A stretch of DNA of 64,000 bases from Thermoplasmata archaeon (GTDB taxonomy: Archaea > Thermoplasmatota > DTKX01 > DATEUP01): the NCBI GenBank assembly GCA_041485285.1, contig JBGPJF010000001.1, positions 17,669 through 81,668 of the forward strand, given 5' to 3'. Below are positions 1-29,905 of the stretch, one piece after another. How positions within the stretch are numbered: the stretch's first letter is position 1; each line of letters opens with the position of its first letter. The notes beneath the pieces are model-generated. The model was not told the origin of the DNA and did no database searches. It saw nothing but the letters and a program-made list of their open reading frames with translations. Made by a program: the position numbers and the translations under genes.

Positions 1-764
1 TTCCTCGTCGATCGCCCACCCGTAGGCGTCGAAGAGCGCATGGTGGTTCGCGCAGAGGAGCATTCCATTTCGGACGTCCACGGAAGTCCCTCGTTTGTTG
101 GCCGGAATGATGTGTGCCGCCTCGAGGCCGACCATCCGCGGCCCGATGTGAAAGCCGATGTCGCAGGCGGCGCAGCGCTCACGGTAGGCAATGCGCACCT
201 CTTGGGTGAATCGGGCGCTCCGGACCTGCCGCTCCGTTTTGGAGACTCGCTTGTCCTCGAACGCGATGAAGGGGATGTTCTCCTCCTTCGTGGGGGGCTT
301 TTGGGGATCCATCGGGAGTCCGCGCAAGTGGAAGTGGTCGTCGTCGTACCCTTCGACAAGGGCCAACCCGAGAACCTCGTAAGCCGCCTTGCCGCCCACC
401 GCCGGTGCCTGCCTGAGGACGGCAATCGGCACCTCGTCGTCCATGTTTCGCTTGAGCCCTTTGTTGGTCGGGAGATTCATGTCGGGTTTTCCGCCACGGC
501 CCTCAGGCGAGTATCGATACGACCACGTCCCGTCGGCGGCGTTTCGCTCTGGCTCCTGGTCTGGATACGGGCCGTTCATCGTCTCGCGAACCCAAAGCGC
601 GTGGCTTGACCCCGATGGCTTGTAGATGCCCATCTGAGCCTTGAATCCGTCAAGTTCCTCGCGCAGTTTTTCGCTGGTGAGCGTTTCGCCAATATGCGCG
701 CGGAGCCAAAGAAGTTGGAGCCGGTGGCGATTGTCCTTCACTTTGTCGACTGGGTCGGGCATTT
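1..764 (-). CDS. HNH endonuclease, partial (continues past the left edge). A roughly 200-aa N-terminal domain of unknown type could be a modified-DNA reader.
   Basis: Manual translation of the minus strand from ATG at 764: MPDPVDKVKDNRHRLQLL...CAACDIGFHIGPRMVGLEAAHIIPANKRGTSVDVRNGMLLCANHHALFDAYGWAIDEE. The C-terminal C-x2-C...H...N...H-H pattern is typical of the McrA-like HNH motif. No in-window stop explains why it is absent from the ORF track. Confidence 0.55.
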
Positions 765-830
765 GCGCGCCCAAGATTGCCGCCGGCGCCGAATGAAGCT
801 ATGGGTGGCGGGGGCCCGCCAAGACGGACG

Positions 831-1127
831 CTACGGACCGCGCTCCGGAACGATTGACCGCTGATGAGACACTCTTGCGCCGCTGAAGCGGAACTTCATG
901 AGGTGGATGCGGCTCCTGGGTGCGGTGATTCCTTGCTCCGTTGCCCAAATCGTGACGATGGAAAGCACACCGCTCCAGAAAAAAACGAGTTCGTGTTGCT
1001 CGCGCTCGTTCGAGTGGGGCCGGAGTTTGGGTTCAAGCGTGTTCAGAACCACTTTCTCGACGACGTTCTGTGCTGGACATGCGGCGAACCCGCCGATGGC
1101 GTGCGAGATTGGCCGTGACAAATTCAC
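831..1127 (-). CDS. Hypothetical small protein of 98 aa with a GTG start. It may be spurious.
   Basis: Open frame between the HNH gene and the leuD fragment. Third-position GC is lower than in the core genes. No recognisable motif. Confidence 0.2.
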   Translation of the reverse strand: MNLSRPISHAIGGFAACPAQNVVEKVVLNTLEPKLRPHSNEREQHELVFFWSGVLSIVTIWATEQGITAPRSRIHLMKFRFSGARVSHQRSIVPERGP

Positions 1128-1546
1128 GCCGCCCGCGCCGCCAGCGTCGTCTGCGTGACCTCAACCAGCCCGCCCTGCTTCAGGATGTGCTGGATGTTCG
1201 GAGGCAGGGCCTCGGCCTTGCGGCTCTTGCCGCTCGTCACGTTCTTCACGACGCCCGAGTCGATGTCGGCCTCGAGCTCGTCGCCGTCCTTGAAGGCCGC
1301 ATGGATCCCCCGGCACACCATCACCGGCAGCGCGATCTTGATCGCGTTGCGGAAGAAGATCGGGGCGAAGGGCGCCGGGGGCCCTACGCAAGTCCGACGG
1401 CGGTGATCTAGACCGGCCACGACGCGTGCGAGGCCCAGGTGGGCCTCGGCTGAGCACCAGATTCTGTGGTAGTCGTAATTACCACGGAATCGAATCTGTG
1501 TTAAGCACACCCGCCACAGATTCGGCGCAGGCTCGCTGAAAGTCAC
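1124..1546 (-). pseudogene. Chimeric ORF whose last ~83 codons duplicate the 3' end of leuD, making it a leuD 3' fragment.
   Basis: The C-terminal ...IFFRNAIKIALPVMVCRGIHAAFKDGDELEADIDSGVVKNVTSGKSRKAEALPPNIQHILKQGGLVEVT aligns residue-for-residue with the LeuD C-terminus encoded at 1647..1900. The nucleotide similarity spans about 1115-1360 versus about 1635-1895. Confidence 0.55.
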
Positions 1547-1646
1547 CCATGGTTGCCCGGCCTGTCGAGAGTGGCTGCCCCGATCTGGTACCAGCGCACG
1601 AGGTCTTGCTGAACCCGCCGCGGGCCGTGCGCCCCCCCCATAGGGC

Positions 1647-2186
1647 TCAAGCGCGGGCGGCGCTTGCGGCCGCCAACTTCATCCTCGTAACCTCAACGAG
1701 CCCGCCCTGCTTCAGGATGTGCTGGATGTTCGGCGGCAGCGCTTCGGCCTTGAGGCTCTTGCCGGTCGTGACGTTTTTCACAACGCCCGTGTCGATGTCC
1801 ACCTCAAGCTCGTCCCCGTCCTTGAACGCGGCGTGGATCCCCGGGCACACCATCACGGGCAGCGCGATGTTGATCGCGTTGCGGAAGAAGATCCGTGCGA
1901 AGCTCTCGGCGAGCACGACCGAGATCCCGACGGCCTTGATCGACACGGGCGCCGACTCGCGCGAGGAGCCGCAGCCGAAGTTGTGGCCCCCGACGATGAC
2001 ATCACCCGCTTTCGCCTTCTTCGTGGCCCAGTCGGGGTCGTAGCCCTCAAGGCAGTGCTTGGCCAGCTCCGTCCGGTCGAGCACCGTGAGGTACTTGCCC
2101 GGCATGATCTGGTCCGTGTCGATGTTGTCGCCGAGGAGGTGGACACGGCCCCTGTACTGAATCTGGAACTTCGACTCGTCGGCCAT
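1647..2186 (-). CDS. leuD: 3-isopropylmalate (or homoaconitate) dehydratase small subunit
   Basis: The LLGDNIDTDQIMP...GGHNFGCGSSRE motifs of the LeuD/aconitase swivel domain. A 7-bp gap separates it from the upstream leuC. Confidence 0.85.
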   Translation of the reverse strand: MADESKFQIQYRGRVHLLGDNIDTDQIMPGKYLTVLDRTELAKHCLEGYDPDWATKKAKAGDVIVGGHNFGCGSSRESAPVSIKAVGISVVLAESFARIFFRNAINIALPVMVCPGIHAAFKDGDELEVDIDTGVVKNVTTGKSLKAEALPPNIQHILKQGGLVEVTRMKLAAASAARA

Positions 2187-2195
2187 CGTGCCACC

Positions 2196-3488
2196 TCACA
2201 CTGCGGGGACCACGACGCGCTTCTTGAGCTTGCGCGGGTCGGTGATTTCGCCGTAAAGCGCCGAGGCCGCAACGACAGCGGGCGATGCGAGGTACACCTG
2301 GCTCTCGCGGTGGCCCATTCGCCCGGGGAAGTTGCGGTTCGAACTGGAGATCGCGACTTCGGTCTTGCCGATCTTGCCGATGTGGCCGCCAAAGCACGCG
2401 GAGCACGACGACTCGGTGAAAACGGCGCCGGCGTCCACGAAGATCTGCACGAGCCCCTCCTTGAGCGCCTGGTTGTAGATGGAGGTCGACGCCGGAGAGA
2501 TGAGGACGCGGCAGCCGGGCGCGACGGTCTCGCCCTTGAGGAACGCCGCGGTGATGCGCAGGTCTTCGATGCGTGCGTTCGTGCACGAGCCGACGAAGGC
2601 CTGGTCGAGCTTGACGCCGACGACTTCGCTGATGTCCTTGACCTTGTCCGGCGAATTGGGGCAGGCAAGCTGCGGCTCCATGCCCGTGACATCGAACTCG
2701 ACCTCTTCTTGAAACACGGCGTCTTCGTCGGAGACCGGGAACGGGTCGGCCATCTCGCGCCGGTAGCGGCCCCTCAGGTAGTCGCGGACGATCTTGTCGC
2801 CGGCGATGATGCCCGTCTTGGCGCCAAGCTCCGTAGTCATGTTGCAGATCGTGAGCCGGTCGTAGACGGGCATCCGCTTGATCGTCTCCCCCGTGAACTC
2901 GAGGGCTTTGTAGCGGCCGCCTTCGCAGGTGAGGAGCTTCGCGGTGCGAAGGATGACATCCTTCGCGTAGACGTGCTCGCCGAGCTTGCCCGAGATTTCG
3001 ATCTTGAAGTTCGTGGGCACGCGCATCCACAGCTCGCCGGTCGCCCATACCGATGCGATCTCCGTGGGCCCCACGCCCGCGGCGAACGCGCCAAGCCCGC
3101 CGCCCATGTTCGTGTGCGAGTCGGAGCCGATGATGACATCGCCGGGGCCTTCCCAGCCCTCTTCCGCGAGCATCTGGTGGCAGATGCCGTGGCGGCCGAT
3201 GTCGTAGAAGTGCTTGATCCCGACTTCCTTGACGAACTTACGGATGTCCACATGCATCTGCACCGCGCCGTCGGTGGAGGCCGGCACCCAGTGGTCGAGG
3301 ACGACCATCACGCGCTCGGGGTCCCAGACCTTGGTCGCGCCCATCTTGCGGAACTGCGGCGCGGCCTGCGCGGTGGCCTCGTGGCCCATCGCGGTGTCGA
3401 CCCGGACATCGAGGATGTCGCCCGGCTTCACATGCGTTTTGCCCGAGTGGGACGCGAGAATCTTCTCGGCGAGCGTCATTCCAGCCAT
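2196..3488 (-). CDS. leuC: 3-isopropylmalate (or homoaconitate) dehydratase large subunit
   Basis: Aconitase-family large subunit of 430 aa, with GSCTNARIEDL and SSSNRNFPGRMG motifs and Fe-S cysteine ligands. Confidence 0.9.
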   Translation of the reverse strand: MAGMTLAEKILASHSGKTHVKPGDILDVRVDTAMGHEATAQAAPQFRKMGATKVWDPERVMVVLDHWVPASTDGAVQMHVDIRKFVKEVGIKHFYDIGRHGICHQMLAEEGWEGPGDVIIGSDSHTNMGGGLGAFAAGVGPTEIASVWATGELWMRVPTNFKIEISGKLGEHVYAKDVILRTAKLLTCEGGRYKALEFTGETIKRMPVYDRLTICNMTTELGAKTGIIAGDKIVRDYLRGRYRREMADPFPVSDEDAVFQEEVEFDVTGMEPQLACPNSPDKVKDISEVVGVKLDQAFVGSCTNARIEDLRITAAFLKGETVAPGCRVLISPASTSIYNQALKEGLVQIFVDAGAVFTESSCSACFGGHIGKIGKTEVAISSSNRNFPGRMGHRESQVYLASPAVVAASALYGEITDPRKLKKRVVVPAV

Positions 3489-3584
3489 TCTGATTGCCTA
3501 CTTGCCAGGGGTGATTCTTGAGGCCTGTTTTTGGCACAACGCTTGTCGCTTAAGTAATCTGCCCCAAAGGGAAAAAACGCCTGG

Positions 3585-3746
3585 CTAGACCGCCTTGATT
3601 TTCTTCTTGACTTCCGCCTCACCGATGGTCTGCCCGTGCTTCTTCCTTACAAGCAAGGTGGACAACTCCACGACCTCGCCCTCGTCGTGGCTGCCGATGA
3701 GGACACCGCAGTCGCGCTCCAACTTGAGCGTCTGCGCTGGCTTCAC
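3585..3746 (-). CDS. Hypothetical small protein of about 53 aa with a GTG start
   Basis: Manual translation gives VKPAQTLKLERDCGVLIGSHDEGEVVELSTLLVRKKHGQTIGEAEVKKKIKAV. It is immediately downstream of the FAD-oxidase stop and below the ORF-track size cutoff. Confidence 0.25.
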   Translation of the reverse strand: MKPAQTLKLERDCGVLIGSHDEGEVVELSTLLVRKKHGQTIGEAEVKKKIKAV

Positions 3747-3759
3747 CCCACGGCCCCCG

Positions 3760-5199
3760 TCAGTCGGCCGGCTTGATGTTCTGGTTCGCCCGGAAGAAGT
3801 TTACGGGGTCCCACTTCTTCTTGACGCTGCGCAGCCGCGCGTGGCTCTCCTTGTAGGCGTCGCCCATCCGCGACTGCACTTCGTCCTCGGTCAGGAAATT
3901 CACATACACGCCTCCCGTCGAGAATGGCCGAATGGCCGTCCACGTTTCGCGCGCCCACGCGATGTTGGGGTCGCCGAGGCCTTCGTCCCAGGCCGCTTGG
4001 ATGTTGAGGTTGAAGGCTGCATCGCGGTTGCCCACGGCCGTGGCGTCGGCGGGAAATTCCGCGATGGCGCCGCCAACCTGGAAGAAGGCCATCAGGCAGT
4101 GCGGCGTGGGGACGAGCTTTGCGCGTTCCAGGAACTTCTCGACGAGGCCGTCGGAGATCTCGGCCACCCACTCGGACTTCCAGTAGTAGTGGCGGCCGTT
4201 CGGCTGCGTGCCGTCGAGCAGCATCTGGAGGTCGGCGTAGTTGCGCTCCATCAGGATGTCCGCGACGGGCTTGCCAAACGCCTTGAGGGGCGCGAGGTCC
4301 TTGACCGCGGCGTCGAGCGAGCCTGTGTGGCAGGCGAGAATCCCGGCCACGAGCTTGCCGTGCCAGTCCTTGGGCACCCACGGTGCCGGCGGTGCCCTTC
4401 GGGCGAGGAACACGAGCGTGAGCTCGCGCGGAGCCTTGGCGGCCATCTCGCGGTAGAACTGTAGGACTTCCTTCGCATGTTCGAAGGAATAGAGCATGAT
4501 GCCGCCCCACACGCGGGGACCCACATGGTGGAGCTTGAACTCGAACGAGGTAACGACACCGTAATTCCCGCCGCCGCCCCGCACGCCCCAAAAGAGGTCG
4601 GCGTTTTCGCTCTCGCTTGCGCGGACGACGCGGCCGTCGGCGGTGACCACCTCAGCCGATAGCAGGTTGTCGGAGGCCCACCCGTACTTGCGCGTGAGGT
4701 AGCCGAACCCGCCCCCGAGGGTGAGGCCCGCGAGCCCCGTCAGGGATACGAACCCCATGACCGTTGCAAGGCCGTGGACCTGCGTCTCACGGTCGAGGTT
4801 CCCCAGCGTGCACCCGGCCTGGGCCGTGGCGCGCTTTCCAGCGACATCCACGACGACGCCCTTCATCGCGGTGAGGTCGATCATGATTGCGTCGTCCCAC
4901 ACCGCCATGCCGGCGATGTTGTGGCCGCCGGCGCGAACGCAGATCAAGAAATTGGATTCTCGCGCGAACCGCACGGTTTCGAGTACGTCGGCCGTGCCGG
5001 AGGCCCTCACGACGAGCGTGGGCTTGCGGTCGATCATCCCGTTCCAGATGGAGCGGGACTGCGCGTAGGCGGGGTCGGAGGGCAAAAGCACGGGGCCACG
5101 CACGCGCGCGCGCAGCTTGGCAAGGGCCGCGTCGTCCAAGGTGGTCGTCGAGCCGTCGAGTGTCTTTACACGGATTCCTGAAACTTGCGCCGTTGACAT
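3760..5199 (-). CDS. FAD-linked oxidase (PCMH-type FAD-binding, BBE-like C-terminus)
   Basis: SGTADVLETVRFARESNFLICVRAGGHNIAG FAD-binding signature. A TATA-like cccttatacg lies about 30 bp upstream of the internal ATG (MSTAQ), so the start is placed at 5199 rather than the GTG at 5223. Confidence 0.8.
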   Translation of the reverse strand: MSTAQVSGIRVKTLDGSTTTLDDAALAKLRARVRGPVLLPSDPAYAQSRSIWNGMIDRKPTLVVRASGTADVLETVRFARESNFLICVRAGGHNIAGMAVWDDAIMIDLTAMKGVVVDVAGKRATAQAGCTLGNLDRETQVHGLATVMGFVSLTGLAGLTLGGGFGYLTRKYGWASDNLLSAEVVTADGRVVRASESENADLFWGVRGGGGNYGVVTSFEFKLHHVGPRVWGGIMLYSFEHAKEVLQFYREMAAKAPRELTLVFLARRAPPAPWVPKDWHGKLVAGILACHTGSLDAAVKDLAPLKAFGKPVADILMERNYADLQMLLDGTQPNGRHYYWKSEWVAEISDGLVEKFLERAKLVPTPHCLMAFFQVGGAIAEFPADATAVGNRDAAFNLNIQAAWDEGLGDPNIAWARETWTAIRPFSTGGVYVNFLTEDEVQSRMGDAYKESHARLRSVKKKWDPVNFFRANQNIKPAD

Positions 5200-5371
5200 C
5201 TTCTCAAATCCCGCGCCCGCCACGCGCCGACGCTACGCCTGAAAAGGCCCACCGCACGTATAAGGGGGTTTGTCACGCCCCGTGGGGCGGTCCGTCAGAT
5301 TCTGTGCGGCGGGGCCCTGCCCGTGCTCTTTGCTCGCCTCGACCCGCGGCAGGCCAAGCAGCGCGAGGGCT

Positions 5372-5518
5372 TCAGTCGTCGGTCATCATGCCGTTCGCGG
5401 CATCGAGCGTGAGTTCCTGCTTGTGCTTGTCGCGGACGTGCGCGACGGCGAAGTACGCGACTTCCTTGTGGTCGTGGCTCTTCACAACGAATCCGCAGGT
5501 GCAGATGATCTTCTTCAT
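5372..5518 (-). CDS. DUF1059-like small metal-binding protein
   Basis: MKKIICTCGFVVKSHDHKEVAYFAVAHVRDKHKQELT matches the DUF1059 pattern (C-x-C...H). The longer ORF N-terminus looks like non-coding readthrough. Confidence 0.45.
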   Translation of the reverse strand: MKKIICTCGFVVKSHDHKEVAYFAVAHVRDKHKQELTLDAANGMMTDD

Positions 5519-5680
5519 TCCGGTAGTGGTGGCGACAGTTTTGTCCAGGGGAATCCCTCGGCCTGGGGGCGGCGTGTTGGCTTTTAAGGGCGCCTCCCCG
5601 AGTCTTGGGCGGTGAGAGGGACGCGGGGTGCGGGTTCCGTCCTGCCCACCGTACATCCTCGCCGCTAAGAGCGTCACCCT

Positions 5681-6124
5681 TCATGGGATTCCAAGGGCGG
5701 CAATCACCTCAGCGGTGGTCACGACTGGCACGGGCGCCTTTGCAAGGAGCTCCTTGTCCTGCGTCCACAGGGTAGCGCTAAGCGCGAGCGCCGCGGCCAC
5801 ATAGGGGGCATCGAGCGGATTGCCTTTGCCCAAGATTGCCTCCGCTTGCGCCAATCGCTTGCGGATAATCGCCAGGGGGACCTCGCCGATCCGGTCGCGC
5901 AGCGCATCGAGAAGGAGATCGAAGGCGGCTTCCGTCGCCCTGCTCTTGGCCAGCAGGTGCGCTCGGTTCCGATCAAACTCCGACCACATCGTCGCGGGGG
6001 TGTAGAGGTCGAGTCCGCCGTAGAGCAGCAAGCGCCGCGTTGTCCCGTCGCGCAGGAGCGCGCCAAAGAGGATGTTGGCGTCCACGACGACGCGCCCGTC
6101 GAGTCGGGGGTGGCGGGCCGTCAT
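5681..6124 (-). CDS. vapC: PIN-domain toxin
   Basis: MTARHPRLDGRVVVDANILFGALL... has a PIN-domain N-terminus. Its ATG overlaps the stop of the upstream antitoxin as ATGA. Confidence 0.7.
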   Translation of the reverse strand: MTARHPRLDGRVVVDANILFGALLRDGTTRRLLLYGGLDLYTPATMWSEFDRNRAHLLAKSRATEAAFDLLLDALRDRIGEVPLAIIRKRLAQAEAILGKGNPLDAPYVAAALALSATLWTQDKELLAKAPVPVVTTAEVIAALGIP

Positions 6125-6345
6125 GCCTTTCGGACTTCGCGCAGCAGGCGTTCCTTCGCCCTTCGCGTGAGGCGGTCGACGTCGGCTTGGGTGAGCTCCG
6201 ACGCGGCGAAGGCGGCGTCGATCGCGTGGAGTTCGCGTAGCCTGCGGCGGATCGCTTGGCGCGCCACCTCGCTCCACCCGATCTCGGGGTGGGCTTTGAC
6301 CCAACGGGCGGTCTCCTCGTCGAGCGCGAGGGTGATATTGGGCAT
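6121..6345 (-). CDS. vapB: VapB-type antitoxin (RHH/CopG-like)
   Basis: 74 aa, MPNITLALDEETARWVKAHPEIGWSEVARQAIRRRLRELH. It overlaps vapC by 4 bp. Confidence 0.6.
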   Translation of the reverse strand: MPNITLALDEETARWVKAHPEIGWSEVARQAIRRRLRELHAIDAAFAASELTQADVDRLTRRAKERLLREVRKA

Positions 6346-6354
6346 GAATGCGGA

Positions 6355-6372
6355 ATATGTGAACTCACATAT
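6355..6372. promoter_or_regulatory. Palindrome ATATGTGA-N2-TCACATAT about 10 bp upstream of the vapB start, a candidate autoregulatory operator and TATA region.
   Basis: 8-bp arms read directly in the sequence. Confidence 0.4.
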
Positions 6373-6416
6373 CTAGGCTCGCTCCAAAAGACGGGAGAGC
6401 GGCCGTCGCGAGCCCC

Positions 6417-6857
6417 TCACGGCGCCGTCTTCTGCAGCCTTGAAGCCTCAAGGAGGATCCTCGACACCTCGACCGCCTGCTCGCTGAAGAACTTCAACTC
6501 CTCCGACCGCGGCTGGCCGGGGAAGGTCAACTTCGCTACCTGCTCGGCGTATTCGCCCGCGACGTCGAACGGCGCATCGAGCCCTTGCGCGTGCCCGGTG
6601 AGCACGGCCCCGATGTAGCGCGACAGCTTGACTTCGCACTCCGCGATGGCGGCGCGCATCTCCACGTACTCCCGCACCGGCGAGGGGTTGGGCGGCACGC
6701 GCCCCGTGTGCTCCTCCCACCGGTTGCGCAGCCGCTCGACGTCGTTGCTGCGCTGTTCGCCCGGGCTGCGGGCCGCCTTCTGCCGGAAGAGCGCCATCCG
6801 GGGCCCCATACCGCTGGTGCTTAATGCCAACTTTGCCTGGGTGCTCCCAAGATGCAA
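6417..6857 (-). CDS. Hypothetical protein, possibly HEPN-like
   Basis: 146-aa ORF with an ...ERLRNRWEEH... R-x(4-6)-H pattern. There is no adjacent nucleotidyltransferase partner. The call is weak. Confidence 0.35.
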   Translation of the reverse strand: MHLGSTQAKLALSTSGMGPRMALFRQKAARSPGEQRSNDVERLRNRWEEHTGRVPPNPSPVREYVEMRAAIAECEVKLSRYIGAVLTGHAQGLDAPFDVAGEYAEQVAKLTFPGQPRSEELKFFSEQAVEVSRILLEASRLQKTAP

Positions 6858-6933: not shown

Positions 6934-8229
6934 TCACGGCGCGCGCTTGATGCCGGCCTTCGCGGCCAGCTGCCAGAATTCCTTGTCCGACACGCCGCGG
7001 CGCAGGTGCTCGCGTTCGTGGTACTCCGCGATGTACTCCGCGTAATCGGACTTCGTCTTGCCCTCCGCTGCCACCTTGATGAGGTCTGTGAGCTCCTTGA
7101 CCTGCTCCTGGGTCGCGGCGACCTTGTTGTCCTTGAGCTTCTCCTCGACGGAGGTCGTGCCCGTGTGCTTGCCGAACACGAACTCCCGCTTGCGCCCGAT
7201 CATCTCAGGCATGATCGGCTCGTAGGTCAGCGTGTGCTTCAGGATGCCGTGGGTGTGGATGCCCGACTCGTGGCTGTAGGCGTTCGTCCCGACGAGCGGC
7301 TTCTGCGTCCCAAGAGGGATGCCCGTAAGCTCCTCGAGGCGCTTGGAGACCGCGTAGACCTTCTCGATCTTGATGCCCGTGTCCTTGCCATAGAGCACCT
7401 CGAGGGCCATGATCATCTCCTCCAGCGAGGCGTTCCCCGCGCGCTCGCCGATCCCGTTGATGCAGCCGTGGGGGATCTCGACGCCCTCTTCGACGGCCGC
7501 AAGCGAGTTGGCGACCGCCATCCCGAAGTCATTGTGGCCGTGCCACGAGAGCTGGACGGGCTTGACGCGCTTCTTGAACTCGCGGACGAACCACTTGGTC
7601 GTCGAGGGGGTACACACGCCCACCGTGTCGCAGATGACCGCGCGCTTGGCCCCCGCGTCGATCGCGGCATTGTAGAGCTCGCCCACGAAGTCGAGGTCGG
7701 CGCGGACGGTGTCCTCCGTCACGAAGCAGGCCGCGATGCCACGCTCCTTGGCGTACTCGAGGGACGAGACGGCGGCCTCGATGCACTGGCTGCGGGTCAT
7801 CTGCAGCTTGTACTTCAGGTGGAGGTCGGAGACGGCGATGAAGATGGAGGTCTCCTGGGCACCCGCCTCCACGCAGGCGTCGATGTCCCCCTTGCGGGCG
7901 CGCGAGGCGGCCAGGATGACCGTGTTGTGCGTCCCTTCCTTGGCGATCGCCTTGCAGGCCTCGAACTCCTTCTTCGAGACCACGGGGATCCCGACGTCCA
8001 TGATCGCGACGCCCAGGTCGTCAAGCATCTTGGCGATCTCGACTTTTTCCTCGACGGTGAAAAATAGCCCGGGGGTTTGCTCGCCGTCGCGCAGGGTCTC
8101 GTCCCAGAAAAGCACCTTCTGCGGGAGGTTTTGGTGGGCCGCTTGGTCGAACACATAGTTGCGGACGAGCGGCTTGCCGTCCTCATCGAGGGGGGTCAGC
8201 CTGCTGCGGATGTTCGAAGCCACGGGCAC
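6934..8229 (-). CDS. 2-isopropylmalate synthase / homocitrate synthase / citramalate synthase family (DRE-TIM metallolyase). Short form lacking the LeuA C-terminal regulatory domain.
   Basis: LFWDETLRDGEQTPG and WHGHNDFGMAVANSLAAVEEG...HGCINGIGERAGNASLEE motifs. It is 431 aa. Confidence 0.85.
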   Translation of the reverse strand: MPVASNIRSRLTPLDEDGKPLVRNYVFDQAAHQNLPQKVLFWDETLRDGEQTPGLFFTVEEKVEIAKMLDDLGVAIMDVGIPVVSKKEFEACKAIAKEGTHNTVILAASRARKGDIDACVEAGAQETSIFIAVSDLHLKYKLQMTRSQCIEAAVSSLEYAKERGIAACFVTEDTVRADLDFVGELYNAAIDAGAKRAVICDTVGVCTPSTTKWFVREFKKRVKPVQLSWHGHNDFGMAVANSLAAVEEGVEIPHGCINGIGERAGNASLEEMIMALEVLYGKDTGIKIEKVYAVSKRLEELTGIPLGTQKPLVGTNAYSHESGIHTHGILKHTLTYEPIMPEMIGRKREFVFGKHTGTTSVEEKLKDNKVAATQEQVKELTDLIKVAAEGKTKSDYAEYIAEYHEREHLRRGVSDKEFWQLAAKAGIKRAP

Positions 8230-8615
8230 CCTCCTCAGTGGGGTTTTGAGGCTACGGCAGATAGAAAATGGTATTGTAGCAGGGTCGGCGAACCGGCCGC
8301 CATTCCGAGCGGAATGCGGGGAGGGGGGGAGCGCCTCCCAGGGTGGCCACCCGGGGGGGAGGGGGCCTTAACCCCGGCTTGTCGCGCCGGAGGGGACGAA
8401 AGGGGAGATCTCGCCGCGCGCAGGCGCCGATTCGGGGCGGCGCCGCGGTCCCAAAAAACTCCACCGGAAATGGAGGTTGGGGACCCGCCCGGATGCCATT
8501 GTCCGAATCCGGACAATTATGTCCAGGTGTTGATTCAATCAGAACATCACGTTTAACTCCTCAGCACCACTCGCCAACGCTTGCGCGTAAGATCAACGCG
8601 CGGAAACCCCAGGCA

Positions 8616-9662
8616 ATGAAAAAGTGCAGCGTGGTCGGAGGTACCGGTTACACCGGCACCGAACTTGTGCGCCTGCTCTCCGACCACCCGCGGGTTCGCC
8701 TTACGGCCGTTACCTCCCGGGGCCTTGCCGGGAAGCGGGTCACCGACGTCTTCCCCCACCTGATCAACCACATCAACGGGCTCACGTTCAGCCCGCCGGA
8801 CATGGAGACGCTGGCTCGCGAGTCCGACTGCGTGTTCCTGGCCACCCCCCACGGGGTCAGTGCAGAGCTCGCGGCCACCCTCCTCGGGCGCAACCGCGAC
8901 CTCATCGTCATTGACCTGTCCGCGGACTTCCGCCTGAAGGACCCCGCGGCCTACGCCGAGTGGTACGGCCACCCCCACCCCCACCCCGAGCTCCTCTCCC
9001 AAGCCGTCTACGGCCTGCCGGAGATCGAAGGGGCCCACATCCGGGGCGCCCGCCTCATCGCCAACCCCGGCTGCTACCCGACCTCCGTGGTCCTTGCCGT
9101 CGCGCCCCTCCTCCAGGGCGGCCTCACCGACCTTGGCTCCATCATCGCCGACTCCAAGAGCGGCGTGACGGGCGCCGGGCGTGAGCCCACGATGGGCACC
9201 CACTTCCCGGAGGTCAACGAGTCCCTCAAGGCCTACGGGGTCACCAAGCACCGCCACACCCCCGAAATGGAGCAAGAAATGTCCTCGATTGCCCACCACG
9301 CGATGATCATCAACTTCACCCCCCACCTTTTGCCCATAAACCGGGGCATCCTCTCCACGATCTACGCCACGAACGCGAAGGACCTCTCCAAGAAGGAGCT
9401 CCTGAACGCCTACCACGAGTTCTACCAGGCCGCGCCCTTCGTGCGCGTCTACGACACGGGCCTCCCGGAGATTCGCAATGTCCGCGGGTCGAACTTCTGC
9501 GACATCGGCCTCGAGGTCGACCCCCGCACGAAGCGGATTGTGCTCGTGTCGGCCATTGACAACCTCATCAAGGGGGCGGCGGGCCAAGCCGTCCAGAACA
9601 TGAACCTCGCCTTTGGCTTCCCCGAGACGGAGGGCCTCAAAGCCCCCGGCATCGGGGCTTGA
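8616..9662 (+). CDS. argC: N-acetyl-gamma-glutamyl-phosphate reductase
   Basis: MKKCSVVGGTGYTGTELVRLL Rossmann N-terminus and ...ANPGCYPTS catalytic-Cys motif. ATG at 8616 inside the longer alternative-start ORF. Confidence 0.9.
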   Translation: MKKCSVVGGTGYTGTELVRLLSDHPRVRLTAVTSRGLAGKRVTDVFPHLINHINGLTFSPPDMETLARESDCVFLATPHGVSAELAATLLGRNRDLIVIDLSADFRLKDPAAYAEWYGHPHPHPELLSQAVYGLPEIEGAHIRGARLIANPGCYPTSVVLAVAPLLQGGLTDLGSIIADSKSGVTGAGREPTMGTHFPEVNESLKAYGVTKHRHTPEMEQEMSSIAHHAMIINFTPHLLPINRGILSTIYATNAKDLSKKELLNAYHEFYQAAPFVRVYDTGLPEIRNVRGSNFCDIGLEVDPRTKRIVLVSAIDNLIKGAAGQAVQNMNLAFGFPETEGLKAPGIGA

Positions 9663-10926
9663 TCTTGGAGGCACTCCCATTACCCCCCCACCGCCGATTC
9701 CGGTCAAGCGCGAAGGCGGCGTGCTCGACGTCCCGGGTTTCTTCTCGGGAGGAACGCACGCGGGCCTCAAGCGCAAGGGCCAGGACATCGGCATCCTGTT
9801 CTCGGACACCCCCTCGGTCGCCGCCGGCGTGTTTACGACCAACCGCACCCGGGCAGCCCCCGTGCTCCTCTCCGAGCAGCACCTCAGCGGCAGCGGGCGC
9901 CACCGCGCGGCGGTCGTGAACTCGGGGTGCGCAAACGCCTGCACGGGGGAACTCGGGTGGAAGAACGCCGTCGAGATGGCCGACGCCACGGCCGATGTCC
10001 TCGGCGTCCAGCCGCAGGAGGTGCTCGTCGCCTCGACGGGGATCATCGGCAAGCAGCTCGACATGCGCAAGCTCCTCACCGGCATCGAGGACCTCGGCAG
10101 CCAGATTGCCTCCGGCCGGGCCAACCCCCGCTTCTCGAAGGCGATCCTCACGACGGACAAGACCGAGAAGACGGTCTCGGCGACCGTGGACATCGGCGGG
10201 ACGGAGATCACCATCGGCGGCGCCGCCAAGGGGTCGGGGATGATCCACCCCAACATGGCCACGATGCTCGGGTTCCTCGCCACCGACGCGGCCGTCTCCA
10301 AGGAGGTCCTGCGCAGGGCCCTGCGCGAGGTCACGAAGGACACCTTCAACATGATCACCGTCGACGGCGACACCTCGACGAACGACTGCGTGCTGGCCTT
10401 TGCCAACGGCGAGGCCGGAAACGCGAAGATCGACAAGCCCGCGGGCCCGCACTTCCGCCAGTTCCAGTCCGCCCTCCAGGCCGTGTGCCGCGACCTTGCG
10501 CTCCAGATCGTGCGCGACGGCGAGGGCGCGACCAAGGTGTTCGCGGTGAAGGTACAGGGCGCGCGCCGCGAGACCGACGCCCGCGCGATCGCGAGGGCCG
10601 TCGCCAGCTCGAACCTCGTCAAGTGCGCCATCCACGGCTCGGACCCCAACTGGGGCCGCATCGTGTGCGCGGCCGGCTATGCCGGGGCGGACTTCGACCC
10701 CTCGAAGGCGCGCATCTCCGTGTCGAACGGCTCGGCCTCCCCCAAGCTCACGCTCTTCGAGAAGGGCGAGCCGGCGGCATTCAACGAGAAGGACGCCCAC
10801 GACCTGCTCAAGAACGAGTGGATCACGCTCACCCTCGAGCTTGGCCGCGGCCACGCCGAAGCCGAGGCCTGGGGCTGCGACTTCTCCCATGAGTACGTGA
10901 CGATCAACGCACACTACCGGACGTAG
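9613..10926 (+). CDS. argJ: Glutamate N-acetyltransferase / amino-acid acetyltransferase (bifunctional ArgJ)
   Basis: ...GGVLDVPGFFSGGTHAGLKRKG...ATMLGFLATDA (autoproteolytic ATML T site). Start is uncertain: TTG at 9613 overlaps argC, and GTG at 9721 is the alternative. Confidence 0.85.
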   Translation: MASPRRRASKPPASGLDLGGTPITPPPPIPVKREGGVLDVPGFFSGGTHAGLKRKGQDIGILFSDTPSVAAGVFTTNRTRAAPVLLSEQHLSGSGRHRAAVVNSGCANACTGELGWKNAVEMADATADVLGVQPQEVLVASTGIIGKQLDMRKLLTGIEDLGSQIASGRANPRFSKAILTTDKTEKTVSATVDIGGTEITIGGAAKGSGMIHPNMATMLGFLATDAAVSKEVLRRALREVTKDTFNMITVDGDTSTNDCVLAFANGEAGNAKIDKPAGPHFRQFQSALQAVCRDLALQIVRDGEGATKVFAVKVQGARRETDARAIARAVASSNLVKCAIHGSDPNWGRIVCAAGYAGADFDPSKARISVSNGSASPKLTLFEKGEPAAFNEKDAHDLLKNEWITLTLELGRGHAEAEAWGCDFSHEYVTINAHYRT

Positions 10927-10941: not shown

Positions 10942-11859
10942 ATGGCATCTGCAAAAGCGCGTGCACGCACGATGGAGAAGCTCAAGACGCTGCAGGTCGA
11001 GGTCGAGTACCCGCCGAGCGCCCGCCTCGAGATGCTGCGGGGCGAAACGGTCGTGGTCAAGTACGGGGGCCACGCGCTCCACGCCGGCGGCACCGCGGGG
11101 TTCGCCTCCGATGTTGCGTACCTCACGCGGGCCGGCGTCCGCGTCGTGGTGGTCCACGGCGGCGGCCCGGAGATCTCGCAAGAGATGGAGAAGGCCGGCA
11201 TCGAGCCCAACTTCGTGCACGGCCACCGCGTGACCGACGAGGCCACCCTGAAGATCGCCGAGCGCGTCCTTTCGGGCCGCGTCAACCGCGAGCTCGTGAC
11301 GGCCCTTGAGAAGGCAGGTTGCCGCGCGGTTGGCATTTCCGGCCGCGACGGGTCGCTCCTGCGCGCGAAGTACCGCAAGCCCAAGGTCAAAGACGGGGCG
11401 GGCCACGAAGTCCAGGTCAACCTGGGGTACGTAGGCGACATTGAGCGTGTGAACACGCGGCTCCTCCAGCTCCTCCAGGGCGGAGGCTACACGCCGGTGA
11501 TCGCGCCCATCGCCGTCACCGCCGGCGGCCAGTCACTCAACATCAACGCCGATTCGGTGGCAGGGGCCGTCGCCGGCGCGCTCAAGGCCACGACCTGCGT
11601 GTTCCTCACCGATGTTAAGGGCATCCTCGCAGACCCGGCCAAGCCCGAGACCCTGATGCCGGCCCTTCGCTACCGCGAGGCCGAAGCGCTGATTGCAAAG
11701 GGCGCCGTCTCCGGCGGGATGCTCCCCAAGGTCCAAGCCTGCCTCGAAGCGCTCTCGCACGGCTCGCGCGAAGCGCGGATCGTCGATGGCCGCGAGGACC
11801 GCGCGCTGCTGAACGCGCTCCTTCCGGCCGAGCCCCGCGGCACGGCCGTGACGCCGTAG
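10942..11859 (+). CDS. argB: Acetylglutamate kinase
   Basis: VVVKYGGHAL...VVVHGGGPEI amino-acid-kinase motifs. Confidence 0.9.
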   Translation: MASAKARARTMEKLKTLQVEVEYPPSARLEMLRGETVVVKYGGHALHAGGTAGFASDVAYLTRAGVRVVVVHGGGPEISQEMEKAGIEPNFVHGHRVTDEATLKIAERVLSGRVNRELVTALEKAGCRAVGISGRDGSLLRAKYRKPKVKDGAGHEVQVNLGYVGDIERVNTRLLQLLQGGGYTPVIAPIAVTAGGQSLNINADSVAGAVAGALKATTCVFLTDVKGILADPAKPETLMPALRYREAEALIAKGAVSGGMLPKVQACLEALSHGSREARIVDGREDRALLNALLPAEPRGTAVTP

Positions 11860-13129: not shown

Positions 13130-13781
13130 GCGCTTGGAAGGCGGGCATCATATCAGACTCAGAAACGAGGAAGATGGTATCGGTATGGCAGGACATGGCT
13201 TCATTCAGGTTGATGCCGCTCGATGCCAGCGCGCCCAGCAGGTAGGCGATCACGCCGGGCGTCTGCGCGATGTCGTCGGGGGAGGTCACGATCATCTCCA
13301 CCAGGCCGCGGGTCATCTGGATCACGTCGCGGCGCGACAGGATCTCGAGCATCTCCTCGACGATGACGTCGTCGCAGATCAGCGTCACGCCGTGCGAGCC
13401 CTGGACGATGCGGAACAGCCGGCCGGCCTCGAAGTACTTCGCCGTGATGCGGCCGAGTTCGCGCATGATGTCGTAGGAAGGGCGCACCGTGATGATCGCG
13501 ACCTTCGAGTGGATCTCGATCTTCGACTTTCGAAGCACGCCCTTGACGGCGGCCTCGCGGGCGCGGTAGCCCGGCGGCACGATGTAGCGGCGGCAGGCGA
13601 TGAGCGCGGCGTCCTGGCTCTCGACATCCGTCTCCTTGACGATCTTGCGCGACAGCGCGGAGAGGTTGATGAGGTCCATCTGGAGGCAGTCCCGGATGGA
13701 GGGGTGCGCGTCGATGAACTCGCGCGCCTTGTGCGCCGCCGTCTCTCGCCGAACGTCCTTCTTCTTCGCCACGCGTGCCAT
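13110..13781 (-). CDS. ACT-domain putative regulator of amino-acid metabolism (COG2150-like), embedded between argD and argG
   Basis: 223 aa with a basic N-terminus followed by ACT-like beta-alpha-beta-beta-alpha-beta segments. Convergent 20-bp overlap with the argD 3' end. Confidence 0.45.
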   Translation of the reverse strand: MARVAKKKDVRRETAAHKAREFIDAHPSIRDCLQMDLINLSALSRKIVKETDVESQDAALIACRRYIVPPGYRAREAAVKGVLRKSKIEIHSKVAIITVRPSYDIMRELGRITAKYFEAGRLFRIVQGSHGVTLICDDVIVEEMLEILSRRDVIQMTRGLVEMIVTSPDDIAQTPGVIAYLLGALASSGINLNEAMSCHTDTIFLVSESDMMPAFQALNKCLT

Positions 13782-13859
13782 GGGGGCCCCTCAGGGGTCG
13801 GACGCGGCGCGCCCTACATGTCCTTTTTGAGACACAACTGACCGAGGCGGGACAACACC

Positions 13860-29616: not shown

Positions 29617-29683
29617 TTGTCCTCCTAAGAAGGACGAAATAGATAATATTTGTCCTCCTGATGGGGACAATTTTGGCGCCCCC

Positions 29684-29826
29684 TCAACGGCCCGCCTCAT
29701 GGGCAAGCTCACGCCAGATCTCGTTGCGGATGCCCCAGCGCGAGTGGCCGGGGGCCAGGGCCGCGACTTTGCCCTGGAGGCCGGACATCGGCTGGGCCCA
29801 CGAGGAGCCGGGGTAAGAATAGTGCG
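29684..29826 (-). pseudogene. Duplicated thiolase 5' fragment, which is direct-repeat copy 2 of the pair flanking the ATPase gene
   Basis: Encodes MSGLQGKVAALAPGHSRWGIRNEIWRELAHEAGR* compared with the thiolase N-terminus MSGIKGKVAVVAAGHTRWGIRNATWRELAQEAGRELF. It terminates after 34 codons. Confidence 0.55.
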
Positions 29827-29905
29827 CGCAGGAGGTTCGCCCAGGCGCCCTTGGCGCGGGCCCGCGATTCCTCCAAGCCCCGCCCCATTGGCCCCCAAAA
29901 AGTAA

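Follow-up and report, generated by a model that had tools for sequence, protein, structure and literature searches.

A repeated leuD 3′ end as the probable scar of a decayed accessory-gene cassette at a leuD-anchored defence hotspot

The 3′ end of leuD occurs twice in the window, the whole stretch of 64,000 nucleotides analysed here, and this repeat is probably the scar of a decayed accessory-gene cassette that recombined into the 3′ part of leuD, at a recurrent leuD-anchored hotspot for defence genes. The cassette would have brought along a replacement 3′ end of leuD, complete with a stop codon, and behind it an AAA_14/DUF4143 ATPase gene in convergent orientation. By a crossover at about codon 96, the 5′ part of the resident leuD would have been joined to this substitute end, so that leuD stayed intact, and the resident end (copy A) would have been stranded behind the cassette, still joined to a small ORF and an HNH_2 gene. 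The cargo gene has since lost its middle, ~1.16 kb comprising about codons 22–408; ~210 bp of it persist, with the promoter palindromes, the first 20 codons and ~13 codons from the C-terminus. The features are listed in Table 1.

Table 1. Features of the leuD region in the window, with positions counted from its first nucleotide
Feature	Positions	Strand	Size and evidence
HNH_2 endonuclease gene, cut by the window edge	1–762	−	311 aa in L180; Pfam HNH_2, E 1e-12; PADLOC HNH model, E 2.8e-9
Conserved ~100-aa ORF region, native neighbour of leuD	801–1127	open on both strands	L083 homology; no Pfam hit
Copy A (S2), putative displaced resident leuD codons 96–176 with own stop TGA (1124–1126)	1124–1372	−	~90% identity to copy B
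S1, decayed leuD codons 74–95	1373–1433	−	66% identity, 1-nt deletion, in-frame TAG
Chimeric ORF, JGI "hypothetical protein" P0124	1124–1546	−	140 aa, GTG start; ORF list; no Pfam hit
Spacer, internally deleted AAA_14/DUF4143 ATPase pseudogene, convergent with leuD	1434–1646	+	213 bp; homology to L179, L091, L183
Two adjacent palindromes (CAGATTCTGTGG..CCACGGAATCG; CGAATCTGTG..CACAGATTCG)	1458–1526	+	Motif conserved upstream of AAA_14 genes
First 20 codons of the AAA_14/DUF4143 gene (PQIRRRLAESHPWLPGLSRV)	1514–1573	+	tblastn with L091 ATPase residues 2–21; aligned with L179, L091 and L182 starts
Last ~13–20 codons of the AAA_14/DUF4143 gene (DLVPAHEVLLNPP...)	1582–1643	+	tblastn with L091 ATPase residues 409–421, 61.5%; C-termini compared
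leuD	1647–2186	−	179 aa, aconitase-family small subunit; ORF list; Pfam Aconitase_C, E 2.4e-19
Copy B, leuD codons 96–176 in the working gene	1659–1904	−	Repeat of 1127–1372
leuC	2196–3488	−	430 aa, aconitase-family large subunit, upstream partner of leuD; Pfam Aconitase, E 7e-103

The repeat itself, first noticed in a sequence-only reading, is real. A repeat search paired 1137–1387 with 1669–1919 (86% identity, register +532), blastn aligned the copies with 255/309 identities (E 1e-80), and tblastn placed LeuD residues 96–176 at 1369–1127 on the minus strand (69/81 identical, E 3e-45). Precise alignment shifted the bounds, initially put at 1115–1360 and 1635–1895, to a clean repeat of 86–90% identity between 1127–1372 and 1659–1904. 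The similarity had also been carried ~12 bp beyond the stop codon, where the alignment does not support it: the C-terminal tails of copies A and B are a 9-nt indel apart and the sequences past their stops are unrelated. The leuD C-terminal portion lying in copy B corresponds to the last ~84 codons of the gene. The displaced copy, first described as the last ~83 codons, is longer by the decayed segment S1. The local alignment score of S1 is 22, against 8.0 ± 1.4 in shuffles, of which 0/5000 reached 22, and its 5′ boundary lies within a few codons of those of copy 3 in locus L179 (residue 73) and copy 2 in locus L183 (residue 74). A junction of old and fresh sequence (66% versus 90% identity) falls within the copy at codon 95/96. 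The 60-nt S1 is much older than copy A, and may be a relic passively carried by the cassette, outside the recent displacement.

The same junctions are present in two further assemblies, possibly not independent of the window sample: the Logan contig L001 corresponds to window positions 2345..1311 (99.9% identity) and the JGI contig L180 to 1829..1 (100% identity). No step in base composition was seen across the feature. The tRNA and Rfam scans gave nothing near it, their sole hits being two tRNAs at 56 and 58 kb. A sigma-70 promoter and terminator scan yielded nothing useful, and such a scan is inapplicable because the organism is probably archaeal.

The spacer between the copies carries the remains of a gene. 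Window positions 1562–1432 match L179 9853–9984 (64% over 133 nt, E 4e-9) and also L091 11789–11888, and the matched part of both loci is the start of an AAA_14 gene with its promoter. The entire spacer is colinear with L183, with only a 2-nt gap and the same deletion breakpoints. In the window remnant the start codon is mutated to CCG, the N-terminal stretch is out of frame with the C-terminal one, and the stop codon is lost. The motif ATTCTATGG-N10-CCATAGAATCGAATCTGTGG stands upstream of the AAA_14 genes in L179, L091 and L182, and also occurs in L183; the palindromes are, by this conservation, a predicted promoter/operator region of the AAA_14 gene family. The whole spacer folds weakly better than its shuffles (z −2.7). 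A repeated or MITE-like element was considered for the spacer and rejected, as neither the window nor any of the loci has another copy of it besides its homologues. The PADLOC PDC-S01 models are matched by the intact homologue in L179 (E 4e-56, residues 23–415); of this gene the window retains only ~33 codons, out of frame and lacking a start codon, short of full length. The spacer is best described as the wreck of the PADLOC candidate defence gene PDC-S01, an AAA_14/DUF4143 ATPase, and the inserted accessory gene was probably anti-virus in role. A literature search on DUF4143/AAA_14 found no paper relevant to the protein family.

Both the gene tails and the substitutions bear on which copy is the resident one. 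The tail of copy A (...LAARAA*) is that of the outgroup LeuD P0016 (...KLAARAA), and copy A runs unbroken into a flank common to L082, L181 and L183. Copy A and its flank are thus native, given the outgroup-like tail and the colinear downstream DNA in these three loci. The tail of copy B (...LAAASAARA) resembles that of the L179 leuD, which likewise abuts an AAA_14 gene, and copy B may be a substitute end that came in from outside together with the cassette. Derived changes, few in number (~23 in total) and polarised on five outgroup sequences, were counted over leuD codons 96–167. The copy B branch has 9 synonymous and 1 non-synonymous changes, and the copy A branch 6 of each kind, including N106K, P115R and L145R at conserved residues. 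With 9 synonymous changes per ~52 sites on the leuD branch, a neutral 216-nt copy of equal age would be expected to carry ~35 changes, versus 12 on copy A. The dN/dS ratio is 0.11 between copies A and B (dN 0.044, dS 0.40) and 0.2–0.36 between the displaced copies of different genomes. Copy A may accordingly be estimated to have been free of selection for only ~0.025 substitutions per site, versus the 34% divergence of S1, and these few substitutions suggest that it was part of the working gene until recently and that the present leuD end is of foreign origin. A test of leuD for mosaicism, comparing 5′ and 3′ synonymous divergence to relatives, found no clear difference. From the tails and counts we infer the direction of events given above.

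The remnant module, on the other hand, is old, because L183 has the deletion breakpoints of the window. If the module was vertically inherited, the freshness of copy A would need a later swap or import. Two simpler histories were tried, namely separate recent duplications alone, suggested by the likeness of copies within a genome, and a single ancient array with lineage-specific loss alone; neither fits the low dN/dS of displaced copies together with the L183 breakpoints.

The closest relatives, found through the protein database and exact-protein look-ups, belong to a deep archaeal lineage near Thermoplasmatota; most are metagenome contigs, several of which end inside repeats. The window LeuD is 73–94% identical to those of this clade. 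Among the matches listed, pattern scans for LeuD in GTDB genomes and JGI metagenome contigs gave only distant LeuD (≤60% identity). In L179, leuD is followed by an AAA_14/DUF4143 gene, a leuD copy (residues 92–173), a HEPN-like and MNT gene pair, and another copy (73–176). In L181 the order is leuD, ~700 bp, a copy, HEPN-like and MNT, a copy and HNH_2, and in L082–L089 it is leuD, HEPN-like and MNT, a remnant copy and HNH_2. Three copies bracket an AAA_14 and MNT unit and a Glucodextran_B gene in L091, and in L182 an AAA_14/DUF4143 gene adjoins a leuD fragment. L183, from another sample, has the order leuD, spacer, copy and flank colinear with the window over 1.09 kb, at 76% identity. The leuD end is thus present three times in L179, in L181 and in L091. 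The short contig L183 has two truncated copies, and the window holds a single unit. The protein database contains at least 12 more ORFs from the clade that encode a truncated LeuD C-terminus.

The sites hold 1–3 cassettes, with an AAA_14/DUF4143 gene, a HEPN-like and MNT pair, or a Glucodextran_B-domain protein as cargo. The cargo genes end 4–18 bp from the stop of the preceding leuD copy or overlap it by 4 bp (L179 8625/8630 and 10261/10258; L181 10342/10339; L082 10537/10544; L091 10540/10558). Cargo proteins are 47–66% identical between genomes whose LeuC and LeuD are 82–94% identical, and do not follow the host tree; the MNT proteins of L181 and L082 are only 49% identical, though their hosts are the closest pair. 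The 5′ ends of the displaced copies form two narrow classes, at residues ~71–76 and ~92–103. Every readable locus of the closer subclade is occupied. In the outgroup, L095 (over 10 kb downstream) and L097 show no extra copy behind leuD, that is, an empty site. The arrangement is that of a core defence hotspot, with leuC–leuD on one side, two GNAT genes (then leuB where visible) on the other, and variable content in between: the PDC-S01 ATPase, MNT (PDC-M05A/S09), HNH, a DpdB-like protein, a type II methylase and a REase-like HATPase.

Several marks of a gene-end-replacing element are present. Target-derived direct repeats (1659–1904 and 1127–1372) flank foreign DNA (1434–1646), and a full-length leuD coexists with a displaced pseudogene end, copy A, that lacks the 5′ half. 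Re-use of the site in tandem is seen in L179, L181 and L091, where at least two units have target copies between them. An element-encoded tyrosine or serine integrase or casposase was not found, and the window spacer has no room to encode a recombinase. Among the called genes of L179, L180, L181, L091, L082–L090 and L182, searched over ~10 kb on each side where contigs allow, no integrase domain is on record. The small ORFs beside the copies (208 aa in L090; 91 aa in L181; 63 and 52 aa in L091; 96–98 aa in L094/L095; 179 aa in L097; four ORFs in L182) showed no recombinase domain either. Scans of IMG/VR with the LeuD C-terminus, a degenerate leuD core pattern and the L179 ATPase gave no match, and no circular or excised form of a cassette was seen.

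Each cassette in the related genomes is followed by another leuD 3′ fragment, so that an insertion would both repair leuD and re-create the landing sequence. Units could then be gained, lost and exchanged through recombination between the leuD-end repeats of 250–310 bp, either by a double crossover with an already structured donor locus or by Campbell-type insertion of a circle excised between repeats. This recombination would most likely use the host homologous recombination machinery, a view held with slightly better than even confidence. Some other seeding event, site-specific or illegitimate, would also be needed, because homologous recombination alone cannot make the first duplication. 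For the clustered 5′ ends of the copies, a fixed crossover site is no worse an explanation than common descent of the cassettes. We further propose, tentatively and as a broader view that we think possible rather than probable, that the leuD 3′ end is a self-renewing landing pad for recombinase-free defence cassettes, integron-like in its layout and run by general recombination. Each cassette would combine a replacement leuD end with one or two defence or toxin–antitoxin genes in convergent orientation; its insertion would repair leuD, and the previous end would remain as a new recombination arm. With this arm kept, arrays could grow, shrink and swap units between genomes through the 250–310-bp repeats alone, and even a module stripped of its cargo, like the remnant in the window and L183, would go on being passed along.

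The sequence-only reading had placed the inserted DNA elsewhere, taking the repeat as one end of a larger mobile or defence island in the left flank, whose integrase and third repeat would lie outside the window. This is improbable and largely refuted. HNH_2 is a defence-type gene, and the stretch from the terminal leuD copy to the GNAT pair does vary: it holds HNH_2 in the window, L082 and L181, and other defence genes in L179 (a DndB/DpdB-like gene, a methylase, an EcoO109I-type endonuclease and a HATPase). To that extent the defence context stands, as the locus is a defence-gene hotspot and HNH_2 lies in its variable stretch. Gene-end replacement, however, puts foreign DNA between the copies, where the gene remnant sits, and the HNH_2 stretch is not bounded by a leuD repeat on its far side; none occurs on the far side of the L179 stretch. 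L180 extends the window 8.9 kb leftward, through HNH_2, a giant Glucodextran_B protein, a Cys/Met-metabolism enzyme, a homoserine dehydrogenase and two GNATs, and neither an integrase nor a third leuD copy was found there. The left flank is instead colinear with relatives: in L082 and L181 the terminal leuD copy is likewise succeeded by the small ORF and HNH_2 (HNH_2 orthologues 65–66% identical), and the small ORF region is present in L183. A 103-aa product of L083 matches window 801–1109 on the plus strand (57%), and a 98-aa minus-strand ORF in 801–1127, whose GTG start overlaps the stop of copy A (GTGA), is also conserved in L082 and L181. HNH_2 is thus a native or older neighbour of leuD, not an insertion marked by the repeat. 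What endures from the integration idea is a displaced leuD end and the substitution of a gene end; the term site-specific is unproven, because no integrase is on record in the L180 extension or the related loci.

A dedicated site-specific recombinase encoded elsewhere, in trans or by a lost parent element, is nevertheless the alternative to which we give most weight, while holding it to be the less probable one. Its core would lie in the most conserved stretch of leuD, codons ~96–109, where ATCTTCTTCCGCAACGCGATCAACATCGCG holds the perfect palindrome CGCGAT-CAAC-ATCGCG (CGCGATCAACATCGCG) at codons 104–108, and the long leuD homology would merely keep the gene intact, as with e14 or phage 21 at icd. 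The old/fresh junction in copy A falls at codon 95/96, and the 5′ ends of L179 copy 2, L091 copy 3, L181 copy 2 and the ORFs P0125, P0127 and P0131 lie within codons 92–103; common descent of the cassettes, however, also predicts shared boundaries. The protein P0021 equals P0008 for 103 residues and then continues in a LeuD tail ≤38% identical to any other top-scoring hit of the LeuD search (P0001–P0120) or to the two cluster members P0121–P0122, a switch that homologous recombination could not make. P0021 is, however, encoded on one contig of 1.3 kb, which the assembler may have joined wrongly where the k-mers of leuD are most conserved. Tandem arrays formed by re-use of att sites are known for integrase-bearing elements of archaea and bacteria (PMC6563490), but the leuD repeats, at 250–310 bp, are far above the archaeal att sites of 8–69 bp (PMC6563490). 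The lack of any recombinase gene on record and the absence of the leuD core and the ATPase from IMG/VR weigh on the same side. In-place tandem duplication of the leuD 3′ end by slippage or unequal crossing-over, with a drifted copy and a filler spacer, would suit two direct copies just 532 bp apart, but is very unlikely: a recognisable foreign gene remnant as spacer counts as refuting it, copy A has about one third of the neutral changes and a low dN/dS, the age contrast within the copy is sharp, and intact cargo genes lie between the copies of relatives. It is equally doubtful that the ORF at 1124–1546 is a genuine chimeric gene with a product built on the C-terminal half of LeuD, even though it runs through 140 codons without a stop and is annotated by JGI. 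The changes N106K, P115R and L145R are non-conservative and hit residues conserved in clade LeuD, and the N-terminal half, with the conserved GSSRE segment, is missing. The ORF had been described as carrying 57 unrelated N-terminal codons; it does exist, but ~20 of these codons cover decayed leuD in a shifted frame and the rest is antisense to the pseudogene remnant. This extension is not conserved in L183, and the sole database match of the N-terminal part is the identical sequence itself. The ORF is judged spurious. Least credible of all is a misassembly in which the leuD ends of two strain variants were placed one after the other: L001 and L180 both end inside the repeat, so assemblers struggle there, but the three assemblies agree on the junctions, L183 comes from another sample, and the architecture recurs in long contigs of other samples, one of 101.7 kb.

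The leuD locus bears on how defence islands come together, especially in archaea and where mobility genes are missing. Each unit here is followed by a dated core-gene fragment, which lets one read from the sequence in what order, and how long ago relative to one another, units were inserted, lost or swapped. If the cassettes move without a recombinase of their own, core-gene ends would act as portable homology arms, a simple and general way of exchanging immunity genes between diverged relatives. The decayed-cassette reading also explains the "hypothetical" and "partial LeuD" ORFs in metagenome annotations and the recurrent contig breaks at leuD in these genomes. The window feature alone would be a dead scar, and a present function is unlikely.

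Among known systems, the element e14 of E. coli is 15 kb long, has its own integrase/excisionase system and undergoes SOS-induced excision. As at the integration sites of e14 and phage 21, the gene entered at leuD encodes a housekeeping enzyme, the insert lies in its 3′ part, and a displaced C-terminal pseudogene is left at the far end. Unlike e14, the leuD inserts measure 0.2–2.9 kb, carry one or two cargo genes and no recombinase, stand up to three in series and occur in an archaeal host, and the duplicated gene end is longer (81–104 codons). At icd the element supplies a substitute gene end that differs mostly synonymously, the displaced icdC pseudogene staying at the far end; when icd and icdC recombine, the insert is lost and the resulting icd, though chimeric, still works (PMC13626634, citing Hill et al. 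1989). In a survey of Thaumarchaeota, 14/68 integrated elements target protein-gene 3′ ends, which they replace together with the stop codon; arrays form through re-use of the site, and many elements are "cryptic", with few recognisable genes (PMC6563490). The leuD cassettes share with these the archaeal host, the target, the replacement of the end with its stop and the arrays at one site. Those elements, however, were recognised by the integrases or casposases that they encode, and their att sites or target-site duplications measure 8–69 bp, while the leuD loci have long repeats, no integrase, and units of single defence or toxin–antitoxin genes.

Hotspots in which variable defence genes lie between fixed core genes are known as cDHS1/2 in P. 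aeruginosa (PMC10250203) and as defence-island hotspots in E. coli (PMC10121019). Many occupied sites there lack a mobility gene, and in the model of those authors the insert brings additional target sites and the region spreads by homologous recombination in the flanks (PMC10250203; PMC10121019). The variable defence genes between leuD and the GNAT pair with leuB follow this plan. Each leuD-locus cassette, unlike those hotspots, which have no such core-gene repeat, is followed by a fragment of the flanking gene, and for this reason the order of events is readable at leuD. With integron arrays the leuD locus has in common small, mostly single-gene cassettes in series, each with a copy of a recombination sequence. 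The resemblance is one of layout only: neither intI, attI nor cassettes bounded by attC-type hairpins were found, the repeats are coding leuD ends, and every cassette has a promoter of its own and points towards the anchor gene.

The 3′ part of leuD is repeated directly 532 bp downstream of the original. The repeat, first proposed in the sequence-only reading, was recovered by a repeat search of the window (1137–1387 versus 1669–1919, 86%), by blastn (255/309 identities, E 1e-80) and at the protein level, where LeuD residues 96–176 match 1369–1127 (69/81 identical). That reading had placed the copies at about 1115–1360 and 1635–1895; the clean limits are 1127–1372 and 1659–1904. It also extended the similarity about 12 bp past the leuD stop, but the similarity ends before the stop codons: the tails of the displaced copy (copy A) and of the end now on leuD (copy B) differ by an indel of 9 nt, and beyond the two stops the sequences are unrelated. 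The copy exceeds the 250 bp first supposed, as a decayed segment, S1, adds leuD codons 74–95 (66% identity), lacking 1 nt and interrupted by an in-frame TAG (alignment score 22; shuffles 8.0 ± 1.4, 0 of 5000 reaching 22). The 140-aa chimeric ORF (1124–1546) is spurious, and the feature is a non-functional scar. The same junctions occur in L001 (Logan, SRR35960034; window 2345..1311, 99.9%) and L180 (JGI 3300052987; window 1829..1, 100%), contigs that may share their source with the window and that both terminate within the repeat.

Features of the leuD region, and large Glucodextran_B-domain proteins, in the window and in other contigs (L-numbers)
Locus	Feature	Coordinates	Strand	Remarks
Window	HNH_2	1–762, continuing in L180 1070–2005		311 aa
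Window	copy A	1124–1372	minus	displaced leuD codons 96–176 with own stop
Window	S1	1373–1433	minus	decayed leuD codons 74–95
Window	spacer	1434–1646	plus	213 bp
Window	AAA_14 N-terminal codons	1514–1573	plus	encodes PQIRRRLAESHPWLPGLSRV, residues 2–21; start codon now CCG
Window	AAA_14 C-terminal codons	1582–1620	plus	encodes DLVPAHEVLLNPP, residues 409–421; frame differs from N-terminal part
Window	leuD	1647–2186	minus	179 aa, Aconitase_C
Window	leuC	2196–3488	minus	upstream of leuD, which comes next
Window	Glucodextran_B-domain large proteins	20369–22807, 22837–25167, 60942–63113
L180	Glucodextran_B-domain large protein	2323–6579
L091	Glucodextran_B-domain large protein	13478–15496
L179	leuD	8086–8625		first element of array
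L179	AAA_14/DUF4143 ATPase	8630–9904	minus	after leuD
L179	leuD fragment, residues 92–173	10001–10246		after ATPase
L179	HEPN-like (136 aa) + MNT nucleotidyltransferase		minus	between the two leuD fragments
L179	leuD fragment, residues 73–176	11336–11647		after HEPN-like + MNT
L179	DndB-like gene, C5 methylase, EcoO109I-type endonuclease, HATPase, two GNATs			in this order beyond last fragment
L181	leuD, ~700 bp, fragment (99–173), HEPN-like + MNT, fragment (97–176), HNH_2, GNAT GNAT, leuB			order
L091/L092	leuD, AAA_14/DUF4143 + 63-aa relic + MNT, fragment (101–171), Glucodextran_B protein, fragment (97–168)			order
L082–L089	leuD, HEPN-like + MNT, short remnant (142–162), ~100-aa ORF, HNH_2, GNAT GNAT, leuB			order
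L182	AAA_14/DUF4143 gene + relic of a second, adjoining leuD fragment
L183	leuD copy (66–178, displaced, HEPN gene before), AAA_14 remnant, copy (74–176), small ORF			order
L180	HNH_2 (311 aa), Glucodextran_B giant protein, Cys/Met-metabolism enzyme, homoserine dehydrogenase, two GNATs			past the window's left edge

The spacer between the copies is the deletion remnant of an AAA_14/DUF4143 gene, from which ~1.16 kb is missing. Window 1562–1432 aligns to the beginning of this gene and the DNA upstream of it in L179 (9853–9984; 64% of 133 nt, E 4e-9) and also in L091, and two palindromes at 1458–1526 represent the motif ATTCTATGG-N10-CCATAGAATCGAATCTGTGG, kept upstream of the L179, L091 and L182 genes. 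The spacer hairpins were rejected as an RNA gene or att site, being the dead gene's promoter region; Rfam gave no match to them, and the fold z-score is only -2.7. In L182, a second, decayed set of these promoter palindromes and first codons lies at 1030–1450, between the intact gene and the leuD fragment, and is the relic of another cassette, like the window spacer. A distant paralogue of the ATPase (32% over 307 residues) is found in the window at 28615–29520 (minus), inside ORF 28312–29958, which has no NCBIfam match.

Copy A ends in ...LAARAA*, the tail of the outgroup LeuD P0016, resembling also P0004 and P0009, and its stop overlaps the GTG start of the next ORF (GTGA). Leftwards from 1360, the window runs colinear with L181 (67% over 1406 nt) and with L082, in both cases along the last leuD copy and the genes that come after it. 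Copy A, the small ORF and HNH_2 are thus the resident leuD end in its native neighbourhood. The left flank had been suspected of being the inserted DNA, but the foreign remnant sits between the copies, and neither an integrase nor a third leuD copy was found in the left extension provided by L180. The present leuD tail, ...LAAASAARA*, resembles that of L179, whose leuD also abuts an AAA_14 gene.

The differences between the copies were polarised over 72 codons with five outgroup leuD genes. The leuD branch carries 9 synonymous and 1 non-synonymous changes, and the copy A branch 6 and 6, among them N106K, P115R and L145R. With ~52 synonymous sites, a copy neutral since the split would be expected to carry ~35 changes, against the 12 observed. 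Between the copies, dS is 0.40 and dN 0.044 (Nei-Gojobori; ratio 0.11), while dN/dS is 0.2–0.36 among displaced copies from different genomes and 0.03–0.07 among functional leuD pairs. These values suggest that the two ends gained most of their divergence while still serving working genes, each in a different genome, and that selection on copy A was lifted only ~0.025 substitutions per site ago; S1 (34% different) and the spacer would be far older than this release. In-place duplication is excluded by these copy ages, which point to copy B having been imported along with the cassette.

Relatives were taken as contigs with close LeuD homologues, retrieved via exact-protein look-up. The LeuD clade comprises ~20 relatives at 73–94% identity, all others being at most 63% identical; L179 is the closest (LeuD 94%, contig 101.7 kb). 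The window ProRS has closest relatives at 78–95%, and its named neighbours (54–58%) are all Thermoplasmata, Thermoplasmatota or Methanomassiliicoccales archaea. This placement, which indicates a deep lineage of archaea close to Thermoplasmatota that has been little sampled, fits the archaeal type of both ProRS and IleRS and the presence of an HVO_0163-type HTH protein.

When only the LeuD C-terminus served as query, more than a dozen truncated ORFs of the clade were recovered, and no extra leuD copy occurs in the more distant L095 and L097, which may represent the empty site. Cargo genes are convergent with leuD; 4–18 bp lie between their ends and the stop of the leuD copy ahead of them, or else the two overlap by 4 bp, so that the unit is apparently a leuD end plus cargo. 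The intact L179 ATPase matches the PADLOC candidate defence system PDC-S01 (E 4e-56), and the MNT proteins match PDC-M05A/PDC-S09. The defence context suspected earlier is borne out. Cargo proteins are 47–66% identical between genomes whose LeuC/LeuD are 82–94% identical, and their relations do not track the host tree, which suggests exchange between genomes. The L091 Glucodextran_B gene is itself cargo, sitting between two leuD fragments, and one of the large Glucodextran_B-domain proteins of the window and its extension is fused to HVO_0163-type HTH domains.

Contig L183 (1.4 kb) derives from another sample and aligns colinearly to window 1992..922, with 76% identity over 1093 nt. Its AAA_14 remnant has the same deletion breakpoints as the window (one 2-nt gap, 62–70% identity), so the remnant-bearing module is old and common to both. 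The leuD copies beside it look recently retired; therefore either the whole module moved into a naive leuD, or working and stranded ends were swapped later. A double crossover could have produced this, with the left arm in leuC/leuD and the right arm, near codon 96, joining the stranded copy of the donor to the end then working in the recipient. Its product would be the window layout: foreign end, old spacer, old S1 and fresh resident S2 (copy A). The same product would arise from a circle that had been excised between two repeats and then inserted in Campbell fashion. A HEPN-domain ORF (L183 1–277) lies in leuD orientation, inverted relative to cargo in the other loci, and stops 6 bp short of a leuD fragment whose start at residue 66 forms a third boundary class.

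Homologous recombination is, on balance, the probable mover of the cassettes; the repeats, at 250–310 bp, are ample for it. However, the 5′ ends of displaced copies fall in two narrow classes, codons ~71–76 and ~92–103, and one protein, P0021 (ENA contig, 1334 bp), turns to a foreign LeuD tail directly after residue 103, although it may be an assembly chimera. Its residues 1–103 are identical to P0008 (...FARIFFRN), and the tail has at most 38% identity to any other LeuD among the first-search matches listed; P0021 is either a real heterologous gene-end replacement at the proposed crossover site or a chimera assembled at the most conserved leuD k-mers. A trans-acting site-specific enzyme is a possible but less likely mover, and the ~92–103 class does fall in the most conserved part of leuD, in which the palindrome CGCGATCAACATCGCG is located. 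Among the loci examined, none has a recombinase gene on record, none appeared when their unannotated ORFs were compared with Pfam and NCBIfam, and IMG/VR returned nothing with the leuD core or the AAA_14 ATPase. Other routes are improbable. In any case, recombination between existing repeats cannot account for the first duplication.

Beyond the leuD repeats, the slot from the terminal copy to the GNAT pair, held by HNH_2 in the window, contains in L179 a DndB/DpdB-like gene, C5 methylase, EcoO109I-type endonuclease and HATPase, which makes it a second variable defence stretch. The N-terminal ~190 residues of the HNH_2 protein match no family. Between copy A and HNH_2, the ~100-aa ORF region (801–1127) has an open, conserved frame on each strand: that of the minus strand (98 aa) is common to L082 and L181, and that of the plus strand is 57% identical to a 103-aa product called in L083; Pfam gave no match to this region. 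Elsewhere in the window, a Fic-type protein adenylyltransferase (45989–47149) may be another defence or toxin gene, as may a protein (29906–31090) that weakly matches MzaA, the MZA anti-phage sigma factor, and the ankyrin-repeat effectors AnkH and AnkY.

Across this uncultivated clade of archaea, the wider pattern is one of defence cassettes arrayed at leuD as anchor and punctuated by repeats of the gene end; it is of moderate interest and directly testable. The scar was rightly recognised as the footprint left by a displaced gene end; site-specific integration, as then proposed, is unproven. The feature is not counted among integrative elements, because a recombinase, one of their defining traits, was sought and not found; it is a variant of the gene-end-replacing kind. 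In Escherichia coli icd, e14 and phage 21 provide a substitute gene end with mostly synonymous differences, leave a displaced icdC pseudogene and are lost through recombination between the copies (PMC13626634); the leuD scar follows the same gene-end-replacement logic. Archaeal integrated elements use the 3′-distal region of protein genes and form tandem arrays (PMC6563490). For core defence hotspots, inserts have been proposed to supply new target sites, and homology in the flanks to let the region spread (PMC10250203), and the leuD locus likewise shows variable defence content between fixed core genes. Unlike these systems, the leuD arrays are without a recombinase, and their units are very small, with just one or two genes apiece, each unit being marked by unusually long gene-end repeats; the target and the host lineage differ as well.
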